Shown here: positions 5,402-21,968 of the stretch, piece after piece
Layout of the letters: each line of letters begins with the position of its first letter
How positions within the stretch are numbered: position 1 is the stretch's first letter
Virus record (IMG/VR): IMGVR_UViG_3300045958_000007
Location: 8,929 to 72,928 of that record
Source: a virus
Taxonomy: Duplodnaviria; Caudoviricetes
DNA length: 64,000 nucleotides
Reading direction: 5' to 3' (one strand)
The notes under the pieces: generated by a model
Told to the model about the DNA's origin: nothing
The model's input: the letters and a program-made list of their open reading frames with translations, nothing else
Databases searched by the model: none
Translations under genes and position numbers: made by a program

Positions 5402-6355
5402 TCAGTAAACCAGCATCACGGGCCCAACGCTGGCCGTGAAGGTCGTAGTCGGAGTGATCGCGGCCAGGGTGCCGAACGTGCCCGTCTGCGAGCCCGTCCC
5501 GTAGTTGGTGGGGGCGCCGGCGGTGGCGTAGGCCTGGAACGTGTCGGTGGTGCCGTTCCCCTGGAGCGCGATGAAATAGGTCTGCGGACCCACCACCCGC
5601 ACCGTCGAAGTGAAGTTGATGCATTGGTACTTCGAGGCGGTGGCGGTGGTAGTTCCGGCGGTGGCGGTATTCGCGATCAGGGCTCCCGAGGAGTCGTAGA
5701 GCGCGAAAATCCACTTATCGGTGGCGACCGTCGCACCGTTCAGCACGCACGCGCCCGTGAGGGTCGCATCGTTGCCGATGTTGAGCTGGGAGAACCAGAT
5801 CTTACCGGCCACGTCGGTCACGGAGGCGTTACTGATGGCGGTCGGCGGAACGAAGGTGGAGAACGCGGTAAACGGCTGCGTCTGGAGCTCCGGCAGGTGG
5901 CCGTGCTGCCACGCGCCGGCCACGCAATAGTTCCAGTGGCCGGTGCGGACGTTGAGCCGCGGGTTGTTGACGAGCGCCGAGGCGGTGCAGGCGCCGGAGG
6001 CGTCGTTCGGGCCGTTGTCGAAATAGCCCGGAGGCCCGAAGTAGACGAGTTCGCCGACGAGGTGCGCGGTACGCATGCTGCCGTTCTGGCCGCGGCGGAC
6101 GGTCCAGATGTTGCCGGTGACGTTGGCGACGACTTCCATGTATTCCCGGCCCACGAAGAGGCCGGTCATGACCTGGTTGTTGGTGCCGAGAGCCGCAACG
6201 CTGATGGTATTGGGCGAGCCGCCGGTGGAGGCCGAGAGCACGATCATGGTGTCCTTGGCCGACATGGGGGAGGCGATGGTGACCTGCGGGGTGACTTCCT
6301 GCGCGAACGCGAAAGCCACCAGCAGAAGAGTGGAGGCAATCAGTTTTTGAAGCAT
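5402..6355 (-). CDS. Signal-peptide-bearing beta-rich protein directly after coat (decoration-like position)
   Basis: MLQKLIASTLLLVAFAFAQ; EYMEVVANVTGNIWTVRRGQNGSMRTAH virion-type motif; several Cys. Confidence 0.8.
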   Translation of the reverse strand: MLQKLIASTLLLVAFAFAQEVTPQVTIASPMSAKDTMIVLSASTGGSPNTISVAALGTNNQVMTGLFVGREYMEVVANVTGNIWTVRRGQNGSMRTAHLVGELVYFGPPGYFDNGPNDASGACTASALVNNPRLNVRTGHWNYCVAGAWQHGHLPELQTQPFTAFSTFVPPTAISNASVTDVAGKIWFSQLNIGNDATLTGACVLNGATVATDKWIFALYDSSGALIANTATAGTTTATASKYQCINFTSTVRVVGPQTYFIALQGNGTTDTFQAYATAGAPTNYGTGSQTGTFGTLAAITPTTTFTASVGPVMLVY

Positions 6356-6429
6356 GTTGATGGGTTTTCCTTTTTAGCTGGATGGGGAGGCGGCTAAACG
6401 CCGCCGCCCCGTCTTTGGTTTCGCGGGAA

Positions 6430-7686
6430 TTAGCCGCAGATGCGCACGCCCCAGTCGCCGCGCTGCGCAACCCAGCCGAACATGATGTCGCAGCGGGTAG
6501 CAAAGATGTCGTTCACGATGTCGTACTGGGACACCGTGCGGATCGACATCCCGGTGGCGGGATCGGTGGCGCGCTTCGCCATCTCGACCGCGCGGGGCAG
6601 GTCGAGCGGCACGCAGGCCCAGGCGTAGGCTTCCTTGTGGAAGGCCATCGCCTGCGGGGTCAGCGTTCCGGCGGTGCCGAACAGGGTCAACGCCGCGCCG
6701 GAGAGCGGAGTCGTGTTGCAGGTGGCATACGGATTCGGCAGGCCGTTGTTGTTGGTGCCGACCGCGATCGCCGGGTAGATGGGCACCACGCCGTTGCCCG
6801 AGCCGTCCGCGTTCACCGGAGCGGTGACCACGAACTGCCGCAGATCGCTCAGGGTGTCGCCCGAAACCGGGTTCACCGCGTAGATCGGGGTGCCCCCGAC
6901 GCCGAGCGTGAACACGTCGCCGGCGTTATAGACGTTCTGCGCGTTGGGGGTGAGGCCGTTGATGACGAGGGCGCTGCCGGTCTGGCCCGCGCCGTTGACG
7001 ACCGGGGTGCCCGCGCCCGAGCCGATCGTGTGGGTGCGGATGTTCTGGGCGAGCAGCCAGTCGAAGCCGGCGCCGGTGCCCATCCGCCCTTTGAGGTACT
7101 GCTTTTTGATCTGCTCCGAGCTCTGGAACAGGCCTTTCAGGGTATCGATGATCTGGGTCTGGAACTTCGACGCGATCACCATGTACCGCTGCTCGTCGAT
7201 CGGCGCCGAATTGCGGTCCAGGGCCTCGAGAGCGGAGAGGTACGTCTGGAAGGCGGTCGAGCCGTTGGGCACGCTGCCGGGGGTGCCGACCACGTTCGGA
7301 GTAGCCTGGTAGGCCACGGTGAGGCCGACCACTTCGGCGGCGTTCGACAGCGCGATCGCCGCGCCTTCGATGTAGCGTTCGCCGATGCGGTCGATCGAGA
7401 GCGTCTGTTCGGCCGAGGTGAAGCTGAAAGCGGTGTGCTTGCGCTGGTTGATGACCAGCGGGATTTTCCGCTCTTCGACGTCCTGGATGACCAGGTTGGC
7501 GCCGTCGACGGCAGCGAATCGCACCGGATCCCGGAGCGAAAGGGTGTCGCCGATCTTGGCGCCCGGTTTGGCGAAGTGCTCGGACCAGTCTTCGTGGTGA
7601 ACGGCTTTGGCAAAGCCGAGGTTGTTTTGGAAGCGCCGCAGCAGTTCGTTGGTGATGATCTGCGGCGTAAGAATCGTATTGGACAA
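6430..7686 (-). CDS. Major capsid protein, P22 coat family
   Basis: SNTILTPQIITNELLRRFQNNL, KIGDTLSLRDPVRF, MAFHKEAYAWACVPL and RCDIMFGW motifs; follows scaffold. Confidence 0.92.
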   Translation of the reverse strand: MSNTILTPQIITNELLRRFQNNLGFAKAVHHEDWSEHFAKPGAKIGDTLSLRDPVRFAAVDGANLVIQDVEERKIPLVINQRKHTAFSFTSAEQTLSIDRIGERYIEGAAIALSNAAEVVGLTVAYQATPNVVGTPGSVPNGSTAFQTYLSALEALDRNSAPIDEQRYMVIASKFQTQIIDTLKGLFQSSEQIKKQYLKGRMGTGAGFDWLLAQNIRTHTIGSGAGTPVVNGAGQTGSALVINGLTPNAQNVYNAGDVFTLGVGGTPIYAVNPVSGDTLSDLRQFVVTAPVNADGSGNGVVPIYPAIAVGTNNNGLPNPYATCNTTPLSGAALTLFGTAGTLTPQAMAFHKEAYAWACVPLDLPRAVEMAKRATDPATGMSIRTVSQYDIVNDIFATRCDIMFGWVAQRGDWGVRICG

Positions 7687-7692
7687 GGGGAC

Positions 7693-8805
7693 TTACCTTT
7701 TCTTGAGCTGCGCCTCCCGCGCTTTGACCCACTTGGCGTAATCGTTGGCGTCCTGGTCCGACATGGGATCGGCTTGAGGGGCTAATGGTCTTCCGCCGAG
7801 GTGGGCGGGAGGGCGCGAGGCGCGCGATGGCTGTTGTTTCGGTTGCGGTTTTGGGGCAGGCTTCGGCGCTGCGGCTCCGGGCTTGGCGGCGCCCTTATCG
7901 GCGGCGGCGCCCTTGGCGGGCGGCGCAATCCGGGTGCGGATCTCTCCGAGCAGCATGCCGGCGCGGGCGAGGGCGACCCCCCATTCGCGCTCGTTGGTGG
8001 CGAGCGTCGAGCGGGCGATCTTCTCGGACTCCTCCGGGTGCTGGCCGAGGTAGTAGGCGATCTCGGTGCCGGCTTCCGGGTCCATGCGCATCACGGACTC
8101 CATGGCGGCCGAGATCTTCACCGCGGGATTGGCAACGACCTCGTTGTAATCGGCAAACCTTGCGGCGGCGCGATTCCATTCGGCCTGCGCGGAAGTCCGC
8201 GCGTGCTCTTCCTCGAGGGCCTGCTTCTGCTTCGCCAGGGCGGCGGCTACCTTGCGCTCGGTGAGCGCCTGGTTGTAGGCGTCGAGCGCCTCCTCGTACT
8301 GGTCCCAGGCGGATTTCTCGTCGGTGTCCTCGAAGTCCCGTAGCATCGGGCGGGCGAGCGGCTTGTCCGCCTCCTCGTCCACTGTTTCCGTGGAGGACGC
8401 TGCTTCCTCCGTAGCTTCCTCTCCCTCCTCCCCTCTGGTGAGGGCATCGAGGCGGGATTGGAGCTCCGCGATTGTGCCGGTCAGCTTCCGCATGCGCCGG
8501 GCGAGGCGCTTATCCTTCTCGGGCTCCTGTTCCTGGGCGGCCTGTACTTCTTCCTGCTCCGCTTCTCCCCCGGGCTCCGACTCCGTGGCGCTTTGGCCCT
8601 CCCGGATTTCTTCTTCTTCCTCGGAGGACTCGGATGGCGGCGTGACTCTGGCGCCCGCCGCGGGCGCTTCTTCTTCCTGCTCTTCGGCCTTCGCCGGCAC
8701 CTCGCCGGTCTCGCGGAAAGCCACGAAGGATTCGTAATCCTCCGGGATCTCTACATAGTCCTGGTCGGTCTGGGCGACGAGGGCGTCAGTTAGTTCGGAC
8801 TGCAT
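7693..8805 (-). CDS. Scaffolding protein
   Basis: Acidic, coiled-coil, Pro-rich; C-terminal YAKWVKAREAQ; between portal and coat; start moved to MQSELTD after GGAG. Confidence 0.8.
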   Translation of the reverse strand: MQSELTDALVAQTDQDYVEIPEDYESFVAFRETGEVPAKAEEQEEEAPAAGARVTPPSESSEEEEEIREGQSATESEPGGEAEQEEVQAAQEQEPEKDKRLARRMRKLTGTIAELQSRLDALTRGEEGEEATEEAASSTETVDEEADKPLARPMLRDFEDTDEKSAWDQYEEALDAYNQALTERKVAAALAKQKQALEEEHARTSAQAEWNRAAARFADYNEVVANPAVKISAAMESVMRMDPEAGTEIAYYLGQHPEESEKIARSTLATNEREWGVALARAGMLLGEIRTRIAPPAKGAAADKGAAKPGAAAPKPAPKPQPKQQPSRASRPPAHLGGRPLAPQADPMSDQDANDYAKWVKAREAQLKKR

Positions 8806-8885
8806 GCGTTTGGGTGTTTCTCCAATGCGGGGATGTTCGCGGCGTACAAAGCCCACCGCTGGGCGGGTACTGCTGAAGTCGTGAG

Positions 8886-10379: not shown

Positions 10380-12614
10380 TTATGCGGCCTGGGCGGCTTG
10401 CGGCCCAGCCGGTTGCTGCGCCTGCGCCTGTTGCGCGGCCTGCTGCTGGTCAAATTGCTGCTGTTGCTGTTGCTGCTGCTGTTCGTGCTGTTGCTGGGCC
10501 TGCTGCATCTGCTGCGCCTGCTGGAACTCCCGCTCCTGCCCGGCGGCGTCGGCCGCGATGGTGAGGTTGGCGTGCTCCAACTCGGCGCGGAGATCGAGCG
10601 CGTGTTTGACCCCGGCGTGATCGAGTTGCGCGAGCTGCGTCATCTGCGCGCTCTTGGCCGTGGTCTCGGCCACCTGGAGCCGGGTCCGGTTGTTCTCGGT
10701 GTTCATCCGCTCCTTCGACTCGATATCGAGCATCTTGCCCTTGAGTAGCTGGAGCAATTGCTGGTTTTCGACCGTGAGCGCCTGGATCAACTGCTGCCCC
10801 TGCTGGAGCTGCGCCTGGATGGCCGGCGGGATGGCGTGCTCGTCCTCGTCCTGCAGGTTGGCCGGGAGCATCTTCTTCAGGCGCTTGGCGATCCGGTCGG
10901 CGCCGGGGAAATCGGAATTCTCGAAGTAGATGTCGGCGACGAGTTGCATCAACTGCGGGTTGCCCTGCGCCAGCGCCATCAGGGTGTCGCGCGTCTCCTG
11001 CCGCGCCGACGTATAGCTGGGCCCCTGCTCCACGGTGACGTCGTACTTGCCGACGTCGAGGCGATGGTGCTTGGTGCGGCCGTCCTGGTCGGTGAACGGG
11101 GCATTGACCCTGATTACCCGCTGTTTCTGGTCCTCCCCGATGATGCGGATTTCGCGGGCCGTATCGTACTTCTTGGGGATGAGGTCGAGGAGGATGCGTC
11201 CGGCGCGCTTGAGGGCGCGCGCCAGGTTGTCCATGAAATGAAAATTGGAAACGTCCCCCTGCTTCTGCAGCTTGCCCACGGCAACGCCGGAGAGGTCCTC
11301 CTTGACCGCGCCGAGCGAGGGGTCGAAGTATCCGGTCGAGGCCTTGATGTCGTCCGCAGCCGCCGCGGCACCGATCGAGAGGGCCTGCACCGGCGGGTCG
11401 AAGGTCCGCCATTGGGGCTCGGGCGCCAGCTTGTCCCCCACGGCCACGGCGTCATATTCGAGATAGGCCGCGTTGTCGCTGTTTGCGCGCTGCCAGTCCT
11501 TGCGTTTCGTTTTGAACTGGCCGACCGCCCCTACCCATTTCGGTTTGGGGGCTAAGGCGATGGTTTCGGCTTCCATCGTCTTGTAGAAGTTGAGGAGCTG
11601 CTGCGGATCGCGGGCGAACCGCGTCATCGAGAAGATGCGGCGCTCGCCCCGCACGATCATCTCGAGGCCGGTCACCATCACGATGGGGATGGTGGAGCCG
11701 TCCCACGGGGTCGGCTCCTCGAGCACCTGCGCGCCGTTGATGATGTACTGGGTTACCTGCGGGATCGAGACCGTGCGCTCCAGGATCTCGCCGTCCGGGC
11801 CGGTGGCCCAGTCCATCGCCTCGATATCGGCGTCGGTGAGGCCGTCCTTCTCCTTGAGGTCCTCCAGGTATTCACGGTGAAGGGTTCCGTCCTCTTCGCG
11901 GCGCATCCGGAGGGTCTTTTGGACTTCCTGGACCTCCCAATACTCCGCGACGAGCCGCGAGGTGGCGTCCATCCACCCCTCGTTTTCGAGGTCGGTGGCG
12001 AATTCGTCGGACAGGTCCGAGGCGTCGGGGCCGAAGCGCGCTTCAAAGGCGTCATTGGCGAAACGCTCGAGCACGAACCCCCACTTGGCATCGGAGCGGT
12101 CGGGCTTCCGCGCATAGCAATCGAGGTAGATCGAAAACGGATCGTCGACCGTGACCGTCTTGAGGTCCTGGTCGAAGCTCTCGTTGTCGGTGTACTCGGA
12201 GGTGTAGCGCCAGTAGCCGAAGCCGCAGCCGGCGGCGTAGAACAGGGCCGTGTCGTAGGCCTGCTCCGCGTCCGAGTCGTACTCGATATGGCGGATCAGC
12301 CCCTGCAGGACCTTGGCGGTGTCGGGGTCGCCTGCCGAGTCCACCGGGTTGACCCGGATGGCCGGCTTGTTCTGGCGCGCCTGGTTGCCGAGTTGGGTAA
12401 CCGGAGGCAGGACTTTGTTGAAGACGAGGCACGGCCGCGGCGAGGGGCCGCGCTCGCGATCACGCTTCACCTTCTGGTCCCACTGCTGGCCGGCGAGAAA
12501 CTCCAGGTCGATGAGCGCCTCCCGCCTGATTTCCTGCTCGGCGGCGACGGCCTGCTGATATCTTTTCCGGGCTCTCTCGAGGACTTGCCGGTACTTACTC
12601 TGGTTGAGCGGCAT
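10380..12614 (-). CDS. Portal protein, P22 gp1-like, with Gln-rich C-terminal tail
   Basis: DLEFLAGQQW, RPCLVFNKV, HIEYDSDAEQAYDTA, RFARDPQQLLN and GKYDVTVEQGPSYTS motifs; start set at MPLNQSKY. Confidence 0.92.
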   Translation of the reverse strand: MPLNQSKYRQVLERARKRYQQAVAAEQEIRREALIDLEFLAGQQWDQKVKRDRERGPSPRPCLVFNKVLPPVTQLGNQARQNKPAIRVNPVDSAGDPDTAKVLQGLIRHIEYDSDAEQAYDTALFYAAGCGFGYWRYTSEYTDNESFDQDLKTVTVDDPFSIYLDCYARKPDRSDAKWGFVLERFANDAFEARFGPDASDLSDEFATDLENEGWMDATSRLVAEYWEVQEVQKTLRMRREEDGTLHREYLEDLKEKDGLTDADIEAMDWATGPDGEILERTVSIPQVTQYIINGAQVLEEPTPWDGSTIPIVMVTGLEMIVRGERRIFSMTRFARDPQQLLNFYKTMEAETIALAPKPKWVGAVGQFKTKRKDWQRANSDNAAYLEYDAVAVGDKLAPEPQWRTFDPPVQALSIGAAAAADDIKASTGYFDPSLGAVKEDLSGVAVGKLQKQGDVSNFHFMDNLARALKRAGRILLDLIPKKYDTAREIRIIGEDQKQRVIRVNAPFTDQDGRTKHHRLDVGKYDVTVEQGPSYTSARQETRDTLMALAQGNPQLMQLVADIYFENSDFPGADRIAKRLKKMLPANLQDEDEHAIPPAIQAQLQQGQQLIQALTVENQQLLQLLKGKMLDIESKERMNTENNRTRLQVAETTAKSAQMTQLAQLDHAGVKHALDLRAELEHANLTIAADAAGQEREFQQAQQMQQAQQQHEQQQQQQQQQFDQQQAAQQAQAQQPAGPQAAQAA

Positions 12615-12906
12615 GGGGGAGGGGTTCGGGCTCGGCCGGCACAACAACGGGCGCGCACTCGTGCGCCTTGCCGGCTCCGCCCGCGGCGCCGCAGAACGGG
12701 CACTCGTCGGTCATCGGCCGGGGGGTAAATCTCAGGTACGGCCGCAGGCGATCAATCATGAGGCGGCGCGCTTCGGGCGCGGCTCCTTCGAGCAGGCGGT
12801 CGAGCATCTCCGGCGTGAAAATGGCGTTCGCCATCAGGGCGATGCGGCGGTCGTCGCGGCGCTCCTGGGGCGAGAGTTTGCGGGGGCGGGTGAAGCGGTG
12901 GCTCAT
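12595..12906 (-). CDS. Hypothetical protein with C-terminal CxxC, paralogue of 4582..4791
   Basis: MSHRFTRP start by ATGA coupling; DRLRPYLRFTPRP motif. Confidence 0.6.
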   Translation of the reverse strand: MSHRFTRPRKLSPQERRDDRRIALMANAIFTPEMLDRLLEGAAPEARRLMIDRLRPYLRFTPRPMTDECPFCGAAGGAGKAHECAPVVVPAEPEPLPHAAQPE

Positions 12907-14343: not shown

Positions 14344-16086
14344 TCATCGGCACCCCACCAGCGCATTAGGCAGCGGAAACAGGCATGGCGTTGGCCCGGG
14401 AATCGTGGACAGATTCGTAGGCTCGGATGGATTCCAGCTATACGGCGCGTTGCCGCTGATGCCAGGAATGCGGAAGGTTAAAGCGTAGTTCCGCATCGAG
14501 TCGCCGTTCCAGTTGTTCCCGGCCGAGTCCCCGACATTGCCGCGAGGTCCATTTTGCGGACCGGCATAGCCGATGCCGCTGTCCAGTTTCCAGTCGGAAT
14601 AGCTGGTCCCGGTTGAGCCGTAAGCGGCCGTAATGTTCAAGCTGACGCTGGTACCGCCCCCATAGCTGGTAACGGTGCCGGTCATGTAGTTGGCCGGGTT
14701 CGCGGTCGAGTAGCAGTAGATGTAATCGCCAGCCCCGAAGCCGGAACTGGCGTTCGGGATCGCGAAGGTTTGGGAGCCTGTCTGGTCTGGATTGTTGGAG
14801 GTGGCACTTGCGGCGGCGCAAACGCCCGTCGAACAGTGGCCGCTTGGCGACGTCCATGCATAGCGCAACTCAAAGGTTTCGGTTGCGGCCGGCGTCCCCG
14901 ACAGCGTAATTCGGACCGTATCGTTGGTTGCCCCCTTTAGGGCCACCGATGAAATGGTGAAGCCGCCTGCGCCGGTGTCCGTCAACTCGAAACCATAGTT
15001 GCCGTCCGGCAGCGCGGCCACATTGGTCGTATCGAGCACGAGCGGCAGCGTTGGTACCCAAAACTGCACGTCGATGTACTGGCCCGTGACCGTAATGGAA
15101 CGCGGCGCAAACGGCTTCCAGCCCAGGTGCTGATACGTGACTCGCGCCAGAGCGGCGCCCTCGATGGCGCCTTGCTGCCGATATCCCACGGCCGTCTTGT
15201 GTACGCCATCAGGCCCATAGGCATAGGGGTAGTCAGGTCCAAAGCAGAAAATTGTCCCGTCCGAATAATGGTCAAGACACGCCTGAAACTGACCTACCGG
15301 AACACCATCCCCGCTGGTTGACGCTGTTGGCGTGCTACGGACGGAGCCGCCCAGTGAGGCAGAAGCCCAGGACGACTTCTGCCAGATGAACAACGGCACC
15401 AGCCCGGTCTGACTCAGAACCGAGTTAAGCGAGGTCTGGTAGTCGGACTGAAGCTGAACCATGTCGGCCTCATAGGTCGAGTAGGTGGTCGAGCCGTTCA
15501 TTTCGCTTTCGCCCTGGTTATAGGAGACGGCCGGCGTGTAGAACTTCTTGCCCAGGCCGGTGGCAATCTGTTGGGCGCCCCACGCGCCCGAACTCGTTAT
15601 GCCATCGTTCGGAGTTAGGTTGCCCACGGCGTCGTTAAATTCACAGTTCGGCGAACCCGGCGTGCCGCCTGTGCAACTGGTGGCGCCCTTTTTCAGGATC
15701 GCGTAGGACGCTCCCGGCCATCCGTAATCGTCGGTCGCGCAAACCCGACCCGTTGCCGTGTTGTATTGGTTGCACATCGAAGTCGCCGGGCTTTCCAGCG
15801 ACGGGGGTGTGAGGCCGTTCCAGGTCTTGGGGACCAATGTGGTGAACGACGTATTCCCCCACGGATACAGGCCGTTGGAGGGATACATCATGAGACTGCC
15901 GTAAGCCGATCCCGACGTGCAGTTTGCATACCCGGTCGAGCTACAGTAGCCCGCCCAGCCCACGGACAGCGATTGCCCGTACCGGACAATCCAGATGATG
16001 TAATTGCCGGCGGCGTGGGCGACACCGATCCATGCGAAGGCCAACAGAAGAAAACAGAGGGCGTAGTACGCAAAAGTGCGCTTCAC
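14344..16086 (-). CDS. Secreted SGNH-superfamily esterase (SASA / sialate O-acetylesterase-like) with C-terminal beta domains
   Basis: Signal peptide MKRTFAYYALCFLLLAFAWIGVAHA; YGQSLSVG, YNQGESE and DGVH catalytic blocks. Confidence 0.75.
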   Translation of the reverse strand: MKRTFAYYALCFLLLAFAWIGVAHAAGNYIIWIVRYGQSLSVGWAGYCSSTGYANCTSGSAYGSLMMYPSNGLYPWGNTSFTTLVPKTWNGLTPPSLESPATSMCNQYNTATGRVCATDDYGWPGASYAILKKGATSCTGGTPGSPNCEFNDAVGNLTPNDGITSSGAWGAQQIATGLGKKFYTPAVSYNQGESEMNGSTTYSTYEADMVQLQSDYQTSLNSVLSQTGLVPLFIWQKSSWASASLGGSVRSTPTASTSGDGVPVGQFQACLDHYSDGTIFCFGPDYPYAYGPDGVHKTAVGYRQQGAIEGAALARVTYQHLGWKPFAPRSITVTGQYIDVQFWVPTLPLVLDTTNVAALPDGNYGFELTDTGAGGFTISSVALKGATNDTVRITLSGTPAATETFELRYAWTSPSGHCSTGVCAAASATSNNPDQTGSQTFAIPNASSGFGAGDYIYCYSTANPANYMTGTVTSYGGGTSVSLNITAAYGSTGTSYSDWKLDSGIGYAGPQNGPRGNVGDSAGNNWNGDSMRNYALTFRIPGISGNAPYSWNPSEPTNLSTIPGPTPCLFPLPNALVGCR

Positions 16087-17703: not shown

Positions 17704-18042
17704 TTACGGGCGAACCTTTGGCAACTCAGGGCGCAACAGCGCCCGGGTCAGCCGGGCGAAAATGCCGCGCGGGCGGCGCGGGGCCGCAATCGCTACCGGC
17801 TCGACCTTCGCCGGTGAGTACTTCCGTTCAAACACCTCGCGCGGATTGAGGTAGGTATAGCCGTCCGCCTGGATGACCACGTAATCGCCCGGCTTCGGCT
17901 GGATCCGCGCGAGCATCCCCGGCGTAGCCAGGAAGGTCCGATCGTTCTCCGTAACGATCAGAACGTGATCGTCATGGGCGGGTTGCCCCACTCTCGCGAT
18001 GCGGAAGGCTTCGACCTCGATAGGCTTGGCGCGATACTTCAT
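17704..18042 (-). CDS. Conserved phage protein (KYRAKP...PGDY...FERKY type)
   Basis: MKYRAKPIEVEA and KPGDYVVIQADGYTY motifs; ATGA coupling. Confidence 0.65.
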   Translation of the reverse strand: MKYRAKPIEVEAFRIARVGQPAHDDHVLIVTENDRTFLATPGMLARIQPKPGDYVVIQADGYTYLNPREVFERKYSPAKVEPVAIAAPRRPRGIFARLTRALLRPELPKVRP

Positions 18043-18452
18043 TCGGCTTCGGCGGCCCCCTCGCGGGAAATGACCTCGAGAGACGCGACCGCCGGATGCC
18101 GATCGAGCGCGCCCAGGACCTTCTCGGCATGGCCGGCATAGCGCACCCGGAAGCGCACGGTTATCACCTCGTGGGATGTTTTTCGCAGGATGTATCCGTC
18201 CATCGGCGCGTCGTACAGGACCTCCCAGCCGGGCCGCACCCGGACCACCAGGCCGCAGCCCGCGCCGCCCGACCCGAGGAGCTGGTTGTTGCCCCAGAGG
18301 ATGTATTCGTGGTCCTTGGCGTGGGCGGCCCCGTAGCGCACCGCCTCGAGACCTTCCGGGATTCCGGGGATCTCCGGGGCGGCGGGCGCCGGTGGGACGC
18401 ATCCGGGCTTGCCGCAGTTGGGGGTACGGATCTCAGGCGTGCACCAGCACAT
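18039..18452 (-). CDS. Hypothetical protein, Cys-rich N-terminus
   Basis: Abuts both neighbours. Confidence 0.55.
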   Translation of the reverse strand: MCWCTPEIRTPNCGKPGCVPPAPAAPEIPGIPEGLEAVRYGAAHAKDHEYILWGNNQLLGSGGAGCGLVVRVRPGWEVLYDAPMDGYILRKTSHEVITVRFRVRYAGHAEKVLGALDRHPAVASLEVISREGAAEAE

Positions 18453-18923
18453 TTATGCCGTCGCCTCCACCTTCGCCAGCGCAAACTGCTCCTCGTTGAA
18501 CAGGAGATAGCGTTCGCCATCGAGCATGAGGGCGCAGTCGCCGTTTACCTCGACGCCGTTGCGGCTCGTCGGCCGGCGCGGCACCAGGATTACGTCTCCC
18601 GGCGCGGTGTGCATCGGCACCCGGCTCTCGCCGGTCTGCTCCCACTCCCGCGAGCCGCACGCGCCGCACTCCCCGAACCCCGAGTTGCGGCGGTTCAGCA
18701 GAAACCGCTTTTCGGCGCCGCAGCTCCGGCACTTCCCGTGAATCAGCCGGTCGCCGGGCCCGACCGCCACTACCTCGGCCAGAAAGGTATCCCCGGAATC
18801 GCCCGGCCGGTCCGCCCGAATGGCATCGCAGCGCGGCAGGAACAGTACCGCGGAATAGGTATCGAGCGGCTTTGCCAGAATCATGTCGTCGAGCAGCCGC
18901 AGGCGTTCGATGGTCTTACTCAT
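18453..18923 (-). CDS. groES: GroES/Cpn10-like co-chaperonin with inserted Zn-ribbon
   Basis: LRLLDDMILAK, AEVVAVGPG, PGDVIL and LDGERYLLFNEEQ align to GroES; CRSC...CGAC insertion. Confidence 0.8.
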   Translation of the reverse strand: MSKTIERLRLLDDMILAKPLDTYSAVLFLPRCDAIRADRPGDSGDTFLAEVVAVGPGDRLIHGKCRSCGAEKRFLLNRRNSGFGECGACGSREWEQTGESRVPMHTAPGDVILVPRRPTSRNGVEVNGDCALMLDGERYLLFNEEQFALAKVEATA

Positions 18924-19223
18924 TTACTCATTCGCTCCCCTTGCTTTGGTTGTTCTTGGCGCCGCCACGCGCGAGGCGTACCGGCTATCCCGGAAGTAGC
19001 CGCCGTGGGCGGCGTCCTGGGGCCGCGTGATGGACTCGCGGCGCAGGTGTGGCGGCAGGGCGTTCGCCGCCTCGGCGCCGGCGAGGCGCGGCGGGGCGGC
19101 CTGGATCCGCTCGCCCAGGCGGAGCCCATAGTCCGGGTCGTTCTGCAAATCGCAGGCGTCGGCGGCGGCATCGAGCGACCGATAGAGCGCGCGCAGCGCC
19201 TTGGTGTCGGCGATCGCCTTCAC
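18924..19223 (-). CDS. Hypothetical protein
   Basis: GTGA coupling; operon position. Confidence 0.5.
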   Translation of the reverse strand: MKAIADTKALRALYRSLDAAADACDLQNDPDYGLRLGERIQAAPPRLAGAEAANALPPHLRRESITRPQDAAHGGYFRDSRYASRVAAPRTTKARGANE

Positions 19224-19459
19224 GCGGCCATCGAAGACAGCGAGTGCAGCCGGGCCGGGTTCAGCTTCATCCCCGGATACAGGCGGTGGACCTTGGCGCG
19301 GATCCGCTTCGCTACGGGCTTGCCCGAGGAGCGCGCGAGCGCGTCCTTGGCGTGCTCCTCATCTTCCAGCGGATAGCTGCCGGAACCGGGCGCTTTTTCC
19401 GGGATGCCGAACAGCTTTTTGGGGATTCTCTTGCGCTCCTCGGCGGTGAGCTTCGCCAT
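19220..19459 (-). CDS. Conserved small basic phage protein
   Basis: KLTAEERKRIP...SYPLEDEEHAKDALAR pattern. Confidence 0.65.
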   Translation of the reverse strand: MAKLTAEERKRIPKKLFGIPEKAPGSGSYPLEDEEHAKDALARSSGKPVAKRIRAKVHRLYPGMKLNPARLHSLSSMAA

Positions 19460-19461
19460 GG

Positions 19462-19812
19462 CTATTCCTCTTCGCCTTCGCCTTCGCCTTCGTCCTCGTC
19501 GTCGTCCATGTCGTCGTCGTCGCCGGCGCCGGGCTTGATGCCGTAGCTCTTCGCCACATGGTCGAGCATGTCCTGGCCGTCCTCGTGGGGCGTGCCGTTG
19601 CCGTCCTCGCGGAAGTCCGGGAGGTAGCGGCCGGCCTTGTCCGCCGCGGCCTGCTCGGCGGGAGCCGGCTTGCGGAAGGTGCGGGTGATGAAGGCCTGCC
19701 CGCCGGCGCTGTTCTTGGCCGGGTGGATCTCCATGTGGTGAATCTCGCCCTTCGCGGTGTTGCGCAGCCCGGCGAGGGGCTTGGTCTTGGGAGGTGCTGC
19801 TTTCTTTTGCAT
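19462..19812 (-). CDS. Hypothetical protein, basic N-terminus and acidic tail
   Basis: Start MQKKAAPP; ends DDDDMDDDEDEGEGEGEEE. Confidence 0.6.
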   Translation of the reverse strand: MQKKAAPPKTKPLAGLRNTAKGEIHHMEIHPAKNSAGGQAFITRTFRKPAPAEQAAADKAGRYLPDFREDGNGTPHEDGQDMLDHVAKSYGIKPGAGDDDDMDDDEDEGEGEGEEE

Positions 19813-19846
19813 CGGGTTTACTTGCCTGCGGTCTGGCGCGCTCGCT

Positions 19847-21379
19847 CTAGCCGCGCATCCAGCCGGAACTGCCGTACATCGAGCCGGCGAACTCGTCCAT
19901 CTCGTCGTCGTCGTCGCCACCCTCGGGTTCGGGCGGCGCTACCGGCTGCGCGAAGGTGAGGGCCAGGGCGTCGGCGTCGTCGGGGCTCGCGATGCCGCGC
20001 TCCTTCATGTCTTCCTTGGACTCGATCACCAGCTTGGAAGACTGGTTGATGTGGTAGCCCGGCCCGGTGAGCTGCAGCGCCAGGTCCTCCTCGTCGGGAA
20101 TCGCGCCGCGGAGCAGCCAGTCCTTCATCTGCGCCCACATATAGGCGCGCCAGTTGAATTGGTGGGGGTCCGGGCTCCGGCCCCCGAAATTCACTTCAAA
20201 AACATTGTTGAACCCCAGCGCCTTCAGCCGTTCGTAGATGGCCGCGCCGAATGCCGAGTCGATGAACAGGGCCGCGATCTTGCGGCCCGGCCGCTGGTCC
20301 CGCAGCAGTTCCGCCGCGACTCCGACCAATACGCTGCGGTCGCGTCCCTGCTCGCCGGTAATCCGCACCGGCGCGATCGAGCGGGCATCCAGGCCGCGGC
20401 GAAATCGGATCACGTTCCACGCCGCTCCCCCGCCCGACACGTCGAAGCCCGCGATCAGGGGCTCGTCCTTCAGGGCTTGGGCTGCGCGCTTGCGGGCGTC
20501 GTTCACCCGGCCGTTGTCGATAAACTGGAGCTCGTCGGCCAGGGGCGGCTGGCCGAGCACCCGAACCCGCACGAAATCGCTGTCGATCCCGTACTGCTGG
20601 ATCCACTTCTCGATCAGCGGCTTGTTCGCAAACCGCGAAGTGCGGGAGTCGACGGAGTGCCGGATCCAGTCGTCTTTCTCCGAGCCGAAGCAGACGCGGT
20701 GAAAAGCGCCCGAGTTGCGCACCGGCTGGCCCCAGGCGAACCACATGGGCTCCCCGTCCGTGAGACCGCCCTTGGCCGTCTCCCAGATCGCATCCGGGAC
20801 TTCGGAGGCCTCGTCGAAGAGGTACCAGCTCGTCGAATTCTTGGCGTGCTGGCCGGCGAAGGACTGCGCATTCTCGGCCTTGCAGGTCTGCGCCAGGATC
20901 TTCCAGGTTTCGGGGTCGGTCTTCGCCTTGATCGAATCCGCCCCGATATCGAACCAGCCTCTCACCATCAGGAGCTTCGTCCATCGCCGGATGGCGGCCC
21001 AGGTGCGGCTCTCGAGCTGGGTGTAGGTGCCGGCCGTGACGGTGCCGATCGAATAACGCCGGGTCGAGAGGATCCAATTTGCGATCCACGCGCCCATCGA
21101 AGACTTGCCGGTGCCGTGGCCGGAATTTTCGGCCAACTGGATCGGCATTACGGGGTCGCGGCCGTTGAACCCACGTTTCCGGACTTCCTCGCCGAGATCC
21201 CGGAGAAATCGCGCCTGGTTGTCGTCGGGCCCGGTCTCGTGCTCCAGCTCGCCGGGCTCGCCCCACGGGTACGCCCAAATCACGAACCGCAGGGGATCGT
21301 CGTAGAACCGCCGGCGGATGAACTGGTAATCGTCCTCGCTGAACCGGACTTCAGGCGCTTGGCTTCTTTTCGCTTGCAT
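19847..21379 (-). CDS. terL: Terminase large subunit
   Basis: Walker A SGHGTGKS, Walker B YLFDEASE, nuclease IAGFDVSGGG and SPDDADALALTF. Confidence 0.95.
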   Translation of the reverse strand: MQAKRSQAPEVRFSEDDYQFIRRRFYDDPLRFVIWAYPWGEPGELEHETGPDDNQARFLRDLGEEVRKRGFNGRDPVMPIQLAENSGHGTGKSSMGAWIANWILSTRRYSIGTVTAGTYTQLESRTWAAIRRWTKLLMVRGWFDIGADSIKAKTDPETWKILAQTCKAENAQSFAGQHAKNSTSWYLFDEASEVPDAIWETAKGGLTDGEPMWFAWGQPVRNSGAFHRVCFGSEKDDWIRHSVDSRTSRFANKPLIEKWIQQYGIDSDFVRVRVLGQPPLADELQFIDNGRVNDARKRAAQALKDEPLIAGFDVSGGGAAWNVIRFRRGLDARSIAPVRITGEQGRDRSVLVGVAAELLRDQRPGRKIAALFIDSAFGAAIYERLKALGFNNVFEVNFGGRSPDPHQFNWRAYMWAQMKDWLLRGAIPDEEDLALQLTGPGYHINQSSKLVIESKEDMKERGIASPDDADALALTFAQPVAPPEPEGGDDDDEMDEFAGSMYGSSGWMRG

Positions 21380-21968
21380 CGAACTCGGCGAGCCGTTTCT
21401 CGGCGGCTTCGAGCCTGCGCCCGAGGATTACGGAAAGGTTGATCGTCTGCGTCTGCTGCGGCGCCTTCCACTGCCCGCGCTCGATGGCGGCCTGCTGCAG
21501 GATGGCCCGCATCTCGGCCGACGTCGCGTTGTCGATCGCGTATTCCGGCACGGGCTCCGATACCCGGTTGCCCCGCTCGTCGACGCGGGTCTCCATTTTG
21601 TACGTGACCGTGACGAGGCCGGAATCGCCGCCCGGGACGGCCGCCATACCCTCGCTGTCGCCGCGCTTCTCGATCGCGCGCTTCAGCCGCAGGTAGTGGT
21701 CCTGCAGCTCGCGCATGCGCCAGTCCGGATCCGCCACTCCTTCGGTCCGCGCATCGCGCCTCCAGTCCTCGGCGTACTCCTGGACCTTCTTTTGAAAGGC
21801 CGGATCCGCTTTCCACCGCCGGAGGGTGCGGTCCGTGACCCCGATCTTGGCCGCGATCGCCTCGGAGGTGTCGCGGGCCTCGGCCAGCAGGCGGGCTGCG
21901 TACACCTGCTGCTCGGTGAGCTGCTCGGAGGGCGGCACCGGGGGAGCCGGCGTGTTCGATTCGCTCAC
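21351..21968 (-). CDS. terS: Terminase small subunit-like HTH protein
   Basis: HTH SEAIAAKIGVTDRTLRRWKADPAF; directly upstream of terL. Confidence 0.75.
   Translation of the reverse strand: MSESNTPAPPVPPSEQLTEQQVYAARLLAEARDTSEAIAAKIGVTDRTLRRWKADPAFQKKVQEYAEDWRRDARTEGVADPDWRMRELQDHYLRLKRAIEKRGDSEGMAAVPGGDSGLVTVTYKMETRVDERGNRVSEPVPEYAIDNATSAEMRAILQQAAIERGQWKAPQQTQTINLSVILGRRLEAAEKRLAEFDASEKKPSA

Follow-up and report, generated by a model that had tools for sequence, protein, structure and literature searches.

Phage co-chaperonins are a classic case of a virus re-tooling the host folding machine. In the DNA of a soil phage, of which a stretch of 64,000 nt (the window) was analysed, one gene encodes what the initial annotation took to be a GroES-like protein with a zinc-ribbon-type insert in its roof hairpin. 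This locus raises two linked questions: whether the protein is indeed a lid for GroEL, and what a predicted metal-binding module might do at the very part of such a lid that faces away from its partner.

A divergent Cpn10 homologue encoded by a soil phage

The gene occupies positions 18453-18923 on the minus strand and encodes a protein of 156 aa, hereafter P0001. Its open reading frame, read from the ORF list and the sequence, coincides exactly with the gene originally annotated, and the residues quoted from it are present. The ORF list, the match of its family profile to solved GroES structures and a predicted Cpn10 fold (Z 10.3) together identify it as a complete member of the Cpn10/GroES family. 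Translation starts at an ATG at 18921-18923, and direct reading of the sequence revealed a Shine-Dalgarno-like GGGGAG 12 nt 5′ of this codon (18936-18941, minus strand). The stop codon of the upstream ORF (18924-18926) abuts the P0001 start codon, and the P0001 stop codon directly precedes the ATG of the next gene; because it abuts both of its neighbours, we assign P0001 to a late operon of closely packed genes. The gene directly downstream (18039-18452, minus strand, 137 aa) is translationally coupled to it, TAA being followed at once by ATG, and its product has a cysteine-rich N-terminus of the form M-C-W-C-T-P...C-G-K-P-G-C. This product gave no Pfam or PHROG match, and its gene is not kept beside the GroES-like gene in two other viral contigs (L001 and L003, described below).

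The IMG/VR record around the window comprises 72,928 bp and is rated complete by CheckV. Cpn60 (PF00118) is absent from this complete 72.9-kb phage record, and P0001 would therefore need the GroEL of its host as a partner.

Searches with the single sequence gave little. P0001 alone had no Pfam Cpn10 match even at E ≤ 10 and nothing in PHROGs, and its best match among solved structures was Mycobacterium tuberculosis Cpn10 (1hx5), at an E value of 0.008 and over the C-terminal half only. A word-index search with P0001 returned just two relatives; an exhaustive HMMER search with a profile of P0001 and those two then yielded 115 cluster representatives (E ≤ 1e-3). Fifty sequences from these representatives make up alignment A2, whose consensus reads P-L-G-D-x-V-L-V, G-x-I-x-x-P, G-x-V-V-A-x-G-P-G-D, C-x-x-C-G and C-x-C-G, followed by R-x-P-M-x-V-K-V-G-D, G-E-x-Y and H-E-E-Q-x-x-L-A-V. 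When compared with solved structures, the A2 profile matched Cpn20, Cpn10 and GroES chains at E values of 2.9e-18 to 3.5e-8, and these matches were always split into two stretches either side of the Cys-rich segment. PF00166 was matched individually by 48 of the 50 A2 members. Applied to a collection of 5.8 billion proteins, the profile retrieved 367 proteins at E ≤ 1e-5, and it recovered canonical cellular GroES proteins of 93-99 aa at about E 1e-13.

P0001 is thus a divergent Cpn10/GroES homologue, an assignment that becomes firm only via the family profile and the fold. The complete GroES alignment initially reported stands at that level; it does not stand for the lone sequence, which fails Pfam and reaches M. 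tuberculosis Cpn10 only at E = 0.008. Many of the long relatives had already been auto-named 'co-chaperonin GroES (HSP10)' by JGI, so the novelty lies in the architecture and its behaviour rather than in the family assignment.

Structure prediction led to the same family. An AF2 model of the P0001 monomer, built on A2, reached a pLDDT of 87 and a pTM of 0.80, its weakest regions being residues 21-40 in the mobile loop (pLDDT 64-68) and residues 121-130 (pLDDT 65). All top Foldseek matches of the model in the PDB and BFVD were GroES/Cpn10, with MCM N-terminal domains ranked just under them, and the nearest clusters in the ESM Atlas were Cpn10, the first one viral. By VIA-align, the model superimposed on M. 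tuberculosis Cpn10 (1p3h_A) with Z 10.3 and an rmsd of 2.3 Å over 88 residues at 30% identity, and on 3nx6 with an rmsd of 1.1 Å over 73 of 75 residues; the scores against E. coli GroES in 1aon and against T4 gp31 (1g31) were Z 8.6 and Z 7.4, respectively.

These results leave next to no probability that the GroES resemblance is spurious, or that the ORF is not a real gene. Such doubts could draw on the failed Pfam search with P0001 alone and on the GC-rich composition of the window, in which long chance ORFs are common. They are countered by the 115 representative relatives found at E ≤ 1e-3, with motifs and cysteines conserved, by a confident model with Z 10.3 to Cpn10, and by a gene position that is kept in four further distinct viral loci. 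Taken together, relatives, conservation, fold and kept gene position refute this explanation.

Three insertions, one of them a predicted zinc ribbon

Departures from GroES were located in alignment A6, which combines P0001 with canonical GroES sequences of 93-97 aa as well as the short sequences from the P0001 family itself. The barrel is retained at both ends. The N-terminal strand (residues 7-19, RLRLLDDMILAKP; 18867-18905, minus strand) corresponds to the GroES 'RPLxDRVLVK' strand, is modelled as a strand over residues 14-19, and contains D13, which is invariant with respect to canonical GroES. The C-terminal strands (residues 136-152, G-E-x-Y...EEQ..LA; 18468-18518, minus strand) correspond to 'DGEEYLIL...ILAV' of GroES and are modelled at residues 137-143 and 150-152, with G136 and Y139 invariant in the same comparison. 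In GroES the subunit interface is built from the strands at the two termini, and these are conserved in P0001.

The mobile loop (residues 20-47; 18783-18866, minus strand) carries a conserved PGD..D.F motif, in which P40, G41, D42, D45 and F47 show little or no variation among the 10 closest relatives. About 12 residues are inserted distally in this loop relative to canonical GroES, and 30 residues separate equivalent anchor columns that are 24 residues apart in GroES. A hydrophobic tripeptide, L27-F28-L29 (LFL; 18837-18845, minus strand), occupies the A6 column of the GroEL-binding IVL/III of GroES, whose mobile loop binds GroEL through this tripeptide (PMC5649160). The Gly that usually precedes the tripeptide is missing in P0001.

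The largest change lies in the roof, where an extended hairpin carries the ribbon-like insert (residues 59-101; 18621-18749, minus strand; delimited by length count and by the model, pLDDT 87-98). The spacing from GxG to P(M/L) is 45 residues in P0001 and 9 in canonical GroES, a net insertion of 36 that agrees with the roughly 35 extra residues first noted and that includes C65, C68, C86 and C89. The base of the hairpin is kept, as D58-R59 on one side and G99-E-S-R-x-P-M on the other. Short family members have D-K-x-x-D-G-S-R-x at the roof, which shows that the insertion sits at the hairpin tip, and in the model the roof strands are lengthened (residues 59-65 and 94-101) and accompanied by a small extra hairpin strand (residues 71-75). 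Alignment and monomer model therefore both bear out the proposal that the insert belongs to the roof β-hairpin, with a Cys4 module at the tip of a retained base.

Within this insert, cysteine conservation delineates two predicted zinc knuckles, C65-R-S-C68 (18720-18731, minus strand) and C86-G-A-C89 (18657-18668, minus strand). C65, C86 and C89 are conserved at 90% or more in 50 relatives, and all four cysteines are invariant in the 10 closest, a degree of conservation that argues against a chance arrangement. The Cys4 module of P0001 is, as modelled, a predicted zinc ribbon at the tip of the roof hairpin.

A third insertion (residues 117-131; 18531-18575, minus strand), absent from canonical GroES, follows a conserved R-R-P and amounts to about 10 residues in A6. 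The initial annotation, correct about the roof, had thus overlooked two further insertions, this one and the roughly 12 residues in the mobile loop.

A fixed place in the head module

In the window, P0001 is surrounded by a head and tail module. The small terminase lies at 21351-21968 and the large terminase subunit at 19847-21379 (minus strand; phrog_2, E 6e-26; phrog_5902, E 2e-40); on the other side of P0001 are a tail-fibre-like protein (14344-16086), an 84-kDa portal (10380-12647, minus strand; phrog_156, E 2.8e-124), a scaffold (7693-8856) and the major head protein (6430-7686, minus strand; phrog_283, E 1.4e-62), which at 418 aa and 46 kDa is a candidate client.

Four other distinct viral contigs (L001, L003, L008 and L010) carry relatives of P0001; a further contig, L002, seems to be a duplicate of L001, and the context analysis thus covers five distinct viral loci, counting the window. 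In all five, the order runs from the large terminase through the zinc-type GroES gene to the phrog_156 portal, while the GroES-like proteins of these loci are just 29-39% identical. In L008 the portal is followed by the scaffold and then by the phrog_283 head protein, as in the window. So constant a position within the head module suggests that head proteins are the clients, and the link to head assembly that the neighbourhood provides is one of guilt by association only.

Two small genes, at 19462-19920 and 19220-19459 (both minus strand), lie between the terminase and P0001. One of them has a long acidic tail (a D/E run) and the other matches phrog_16160, and the two recur upstream of the GroES-like gene in the same order in L001. 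The start of the 152-aa ORF at 19462-19920 is probably an internal ATG near 19815, past the terminase stop. We also considered a conserved partner gene directly beside the GroES-like gene, and rejected it: the immediately flanking small ORFs differ among the window, L001 and L003.

One relative was found outside the recognised viral contigs. It lies at 6001-6438 of a 12-kb contig (L004, JBEKLW010000021.1) in a peat Bryobacteraceae MAG, and its match to P0001, at 39% identity, agrees in range and identity with those of L001 and L002. The binning of this contig in Bryobacteraceae hints weakly at an acidobacterial host. Among cultured phages, tblastn with P0001 and P0130 against 50,697 GenBank phage records detected no relative, and metagenome scans for the DNA of near-identical protein pairs likewise returned none.

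The position of the gene, always between terminase and portal, could also suit a GroES fold re-used apart from GroEL, for example as a ring or adaptor whose basic ribbons bind nucleic acid, or else a packaging or portal component, by analogy with the OB-fold and zinc-ribbon ring of the MCM N-terminal domain. The insert is basic, and MCM N-terminal domains, which rank just under GroES in Foldseek, offer a structural parallel: residues 58-102 alone superimpose on their Zn subdomains with Z 5-6.2. This match covers just 42-45 residues, and its Z is middling by the tool's own scale. Moreover, the sequence homology of P0001 is to Cpn10 and not to MCM, and the retention of a GroES-specific flexible mobile loop with its tripeptide would be hard to explain without GroEL. 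We therefore consider a role independent of GroEL quite improbable.

Separate evolution of insert and core

To what extent is this architecture shared? The initial annotation had suggested a search for other Cpn10 proteins with CxxC-CxxC inserts, and such proteins proved numerous. Among 209 collected sequences, 134 have a roof insert of 35-96 residues with at least 4 Cys; 51 have the short tip of 9 residues (two of them 8 or 10), comprising 39 canonical cellular GroES and 12 phage-type short forms; and the remaining 24 have a longer tip (15-53 residues) with fewer than 4 Cys. The cysteines follow the pattern CxxC...CxxC in 75 of 133 Zn-type inserts and CxxC...CxC in 41, together 116 of 133. 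The Zn-roof family is thus large, with at least 134 of the 209 collected sequences, and is tied to the head-assembly module; it seems to be confined to uncultured phages, where it comprises well over a hundred protein clusters.

A FastTree phylogeny was built from 109 core columns with the insert left out; its columns are few and many of its forks unresolved, and we draw on it solely for the distribution of the Zn state. Cellular GroES forms one clade with support 100. Outside it, sequences with a Zn ribbon, with a short tip and with a long tip lacking Zn motifs are interleaved, and well-supported branches alone force at least 6 changes of the Zn state. P0148, which has the ribbon, and P0164, which does not, share 90% identity and are set apart by a clean indel of 37 residues in the hairpin tip.

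Where the ribbon is kept, its sequence diverges from pair to pair far more than the core. Core and insert identities are 98% versus 27% for P0127/P0129, 94% versus 24% for P0146/P0148, and 90% versus 33% for P0045/P0131. Of the 323 pairs whose cores share 55% identity or more, 322 have an insert that is less well conserved than the core, and over 8043 pairs core identity correlates with insert identity at only 0.17. P0008/P0050 show the reverse pattern (core 31%, insert 55%). In the subfamily of P0001 itself the contrast is mild, at 60% core versus 49% insert for P0001/P0002 and 74% versus 74% for P0003/P0118. This pattern indicates cassette exchange or strong diversification in which only the four Cys are fixed. 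On these sequence comparisons, the insert is an element that evolves separately from the core, apparently swapped, lost and regained across the family.

One insert subtype, marked by R-x-E-T-A-K-x-(W/F)-x-C-x-x-C-G between its knuckles, recurs in the family. It is carried by P0008, P0021, P0031, P0050, P0075, P0076, P0127, P0128 and P0135, on several core lineages whose cores are otherwise about 30-60% identical.

Two specific sources of the variability were examined and rejected. A diversity-generating retroelement is excluded for this phage, as its record has no reverse transcriptase (PF00078) and the window contains no other copy of the DNA encoding the insert that could serve as a template repeat, the best off-target match being 19 bp. 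Nor is a recent foreign origin of the insert supported by composition (GC 0.71 and GC3 0.93, against 0.66 and 0.81 in the rest of the gene).

Divergence of this kind invites a reading in terms of conflict, in which P0001 would take over or block host GroEL, or evade a defence that watches the chaperonin, its fast-changing crown being the product of an arms race. Inserts that diverge almost wholly between proteins with cores 90-98% identical, and a similar insert on very different cores (P0008/P0050), form a pattern typical of conflict surfaces, or else of exchanged cassettes. Mosaic recombination without any conflict gives the same pattern, however, and P0001 has no linked gene for defence or counter-defence; in its own subfamily the inserts are nearly as conserved as the cores (P0003/P0118, P0001/P0002). 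An arms race is, to our minds, very improbable.

The insert also differs from the core in charge: in 69% of the Zn forms its net charge is positive (+3 in P0001), whereas cores average -5.3. Basic charge and variability are compatible with an exposed interaction module, such as the crown that the initial annotation proposed might recruit coat protein or nucleic acid, and point to no particular ligand.

Some distant members bear on a further possibility. P0093, P0099, P0107, P0109, P0113 and P0072 have paired CxxCxGxG motifs, as in DnaJ, at the roof tip instead of a plain zinc ribbon, and in 6 of 10 distant members tested DnaJ_CXXCXGXG (PF00684) gave sub-threshold matches (E 4e-5 to 0.04; 14.7-24.1 bits, cut-off 32.7). 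The protein could be a GroEL lid whose ribbon is no passive crown but acts as a redox or metal switch, or as a holdase-like client binder, after the fashion of the zinc-cysteine modules in DnaJ, Hsp33 or M. tuberculosis Ruc. A precedent exists in Rv0991c, a zinc-ribbon chaperone activated by oxidation (10.1101/2020.03.05.980086), and the strict retention of four Cys while all else varies would fit such a role. P0001 itself, however, has CxxCG-A-E and CxxCG-S-R motifs in place of CxxCxGxG and no PF00684 match, and the DnaJ matches of its relatives all fall below the Pfam cut-off. In addition, the roof tip of canonical GroES faces away from the cavity, which would put a caged client out of reach, and natural variants drop the module cleanly, suggesting that the core function is independent of it. 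We judge a switch or holdase distinctly unlikely.

A probable lid for host GroEL with a proposed exposed crown

Which function, then, best accommodates a GroES core, a fixed place in the head module and a ribbon that evolves separately? We consider P0001 to be, probably, a phage-encoded lid for host GroEL in the folding of head proteins, on which seven zinc ribbons would make up an exposed crown. A lid for the host chaperonin is suggested by the retained core and interface strands of GroES, together with a mobile loop that is flexible, lengthened and equipped with its tripeptide. P0001 would assemble as a GroES-like ring, dock on host GroEL via the mobile loop with its LFL tripeptide, and help to fold proteins of the head module, for which the 46-kDa major head protein is the obvious candidate. 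What sets it apart is the roof hairpin, which is lengthened in each subunit and capped by a Cys4 ribbon that presumably binds zinc.

The roof geometry constrains how such a ring could be built. In GroES, the seven subunits bring their roof tips together round a very narrow orifice. Seven modules of 40 residues are too big for this orifice, so the hairpins would have to stand up if the ring forms; without such a reorientation, extensions this long and rigid at the sevenfold axis could prevent the heptamer from closing. The seven modules, each of about 40 residues, may thus rise round a wider opening as a crown or turret that faces outwards and is mostly basic. A basic and variable insert that is dispensable in natural variants fits a solvent-exposed accessory module, and its separate evolution, as read from sequence, fits an exposed accessory or specificity module rather than a wall of the folding cage.

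A more speculative version of the crowned lid, which we regard as unlikely though worth stating, assigns the ribbons a definite task. They may be an exchangeable, phage-specific adaptor turret outside the GroEL-GroES cage, set round an opened roof, which either tethers the chaperonin to a particular phage assembly partner or nucleic acid, or gives room for part of an oversized client (the 84-kDa portal, for instance) to project through the roof as its remainder folds in the cage. If so, phages would tune chaperonin specificity by swapping the ornament on the lid while leaving the cage unchanged.

More generally, a crown that recruits partners or opens the roof would represent a new route to client specificity for a general chaperonin, and would provide, in its sevenfold ring, a natural scaffold for the display of small domains. 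Ready-made experimental controls exist in the natural pairs whose members differ in nothing but the insert, or of which one member lacks it.

Comparison with known systems

Bacterial GroES/Cpn10 proteins (1p3h, 1aon and Thermus thermophilus 4v4o) have the same β-barrel as P0001 (Z 8.6-10.3) and match its family profile at E values of 1e-15 to 1e-8. They share the order of motifs, from D-x-V/I-L-V through the mobile-loop tripeptide, V-V-A-V-G-x-G and the roof hairpin base to G-D-x-V and G-E-x-Y. Unlike them, P0001 is phage-encoded, has three insertions and has no adjoining groEL.

The best profile match was chloroplast Cpn20 (7ekq; E 2.9e-18), a tandem Cpn10 that has no zinc insert, whereas P0001 is a single-domain protein. 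Two distant metagenomic relatives of 266-268 aa, P0105 and P0110, are themselves tandem Cpn10s resembling Cpn20, with a Cys-rich roof insert in domain 1 and a canonical Cpn10 as domain 2 (PF00166, E 6e-33 and 4e-43).

Helicobacter pylori HspA is a cellular GroES with a C-terminal, His/Cys-rich metal-binding tail. It resembles P0001 as a GroES homologue with an added metal-binding element, but its element is an unstructured C-terminal tail on a cellular protein, where the predicted ribbon of the viral P0001 is folded inside the roof hairpin.

A structural parallel to the insert is the Zn subdomain B in the MCM N-terminal region (1ltl, 4pof), which, like P0001 as modelled, places a Cys4 ribbon of about 45 residues in a hairpin of a ring-forming β-barrel, and which superimposes on residues 58-102 with an rmsd of 2.0-2.8 Å over 42-45 residues. 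MCM zinc subdomains mediate ring-to-ring contacts. The two proteins have no sequence relationship, and MCM forms a hexamer rather than a heptamer from a barrel that is an OB fold.

Among phage co-chaperonins, T4 gp31, RB49 CocO and the roof-less virioplankton GroES clusters delete the roof hairpin (Marine et al. 2017, PMC5649160). In the literature we found no description of a GroES/Cpn10 with a zinc ribbon in the roof, that study reporting roof deletions alone; papers on the alcohol-dehydrogenase 'GroES fold', which has a structural zinc, likewise offered no usable placement of its zinc lobe with respect to the roof. P0001 resembles gp31 and CocO in being phage-encoded, in having a mobile loop longer than that of GroES and in having a remodelled roof; in sequence it lies clearly nearer to cellular Cpn10 than gp31 does (30% versus 11% identity in structural alignments). 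The contrast with gp31 drawn in the initial annotation is a fair one, and extends to the other viral GroES proteins that delete the roof (PMC5649160): what is deleted there is lengthened in P0001 and furnished with a predicted metal-binding module. The Zn-roof family thereby reverses the known phage trick, adding a folded, fast-changing, predicted metal-binding module where the lid faces away from GroEL.
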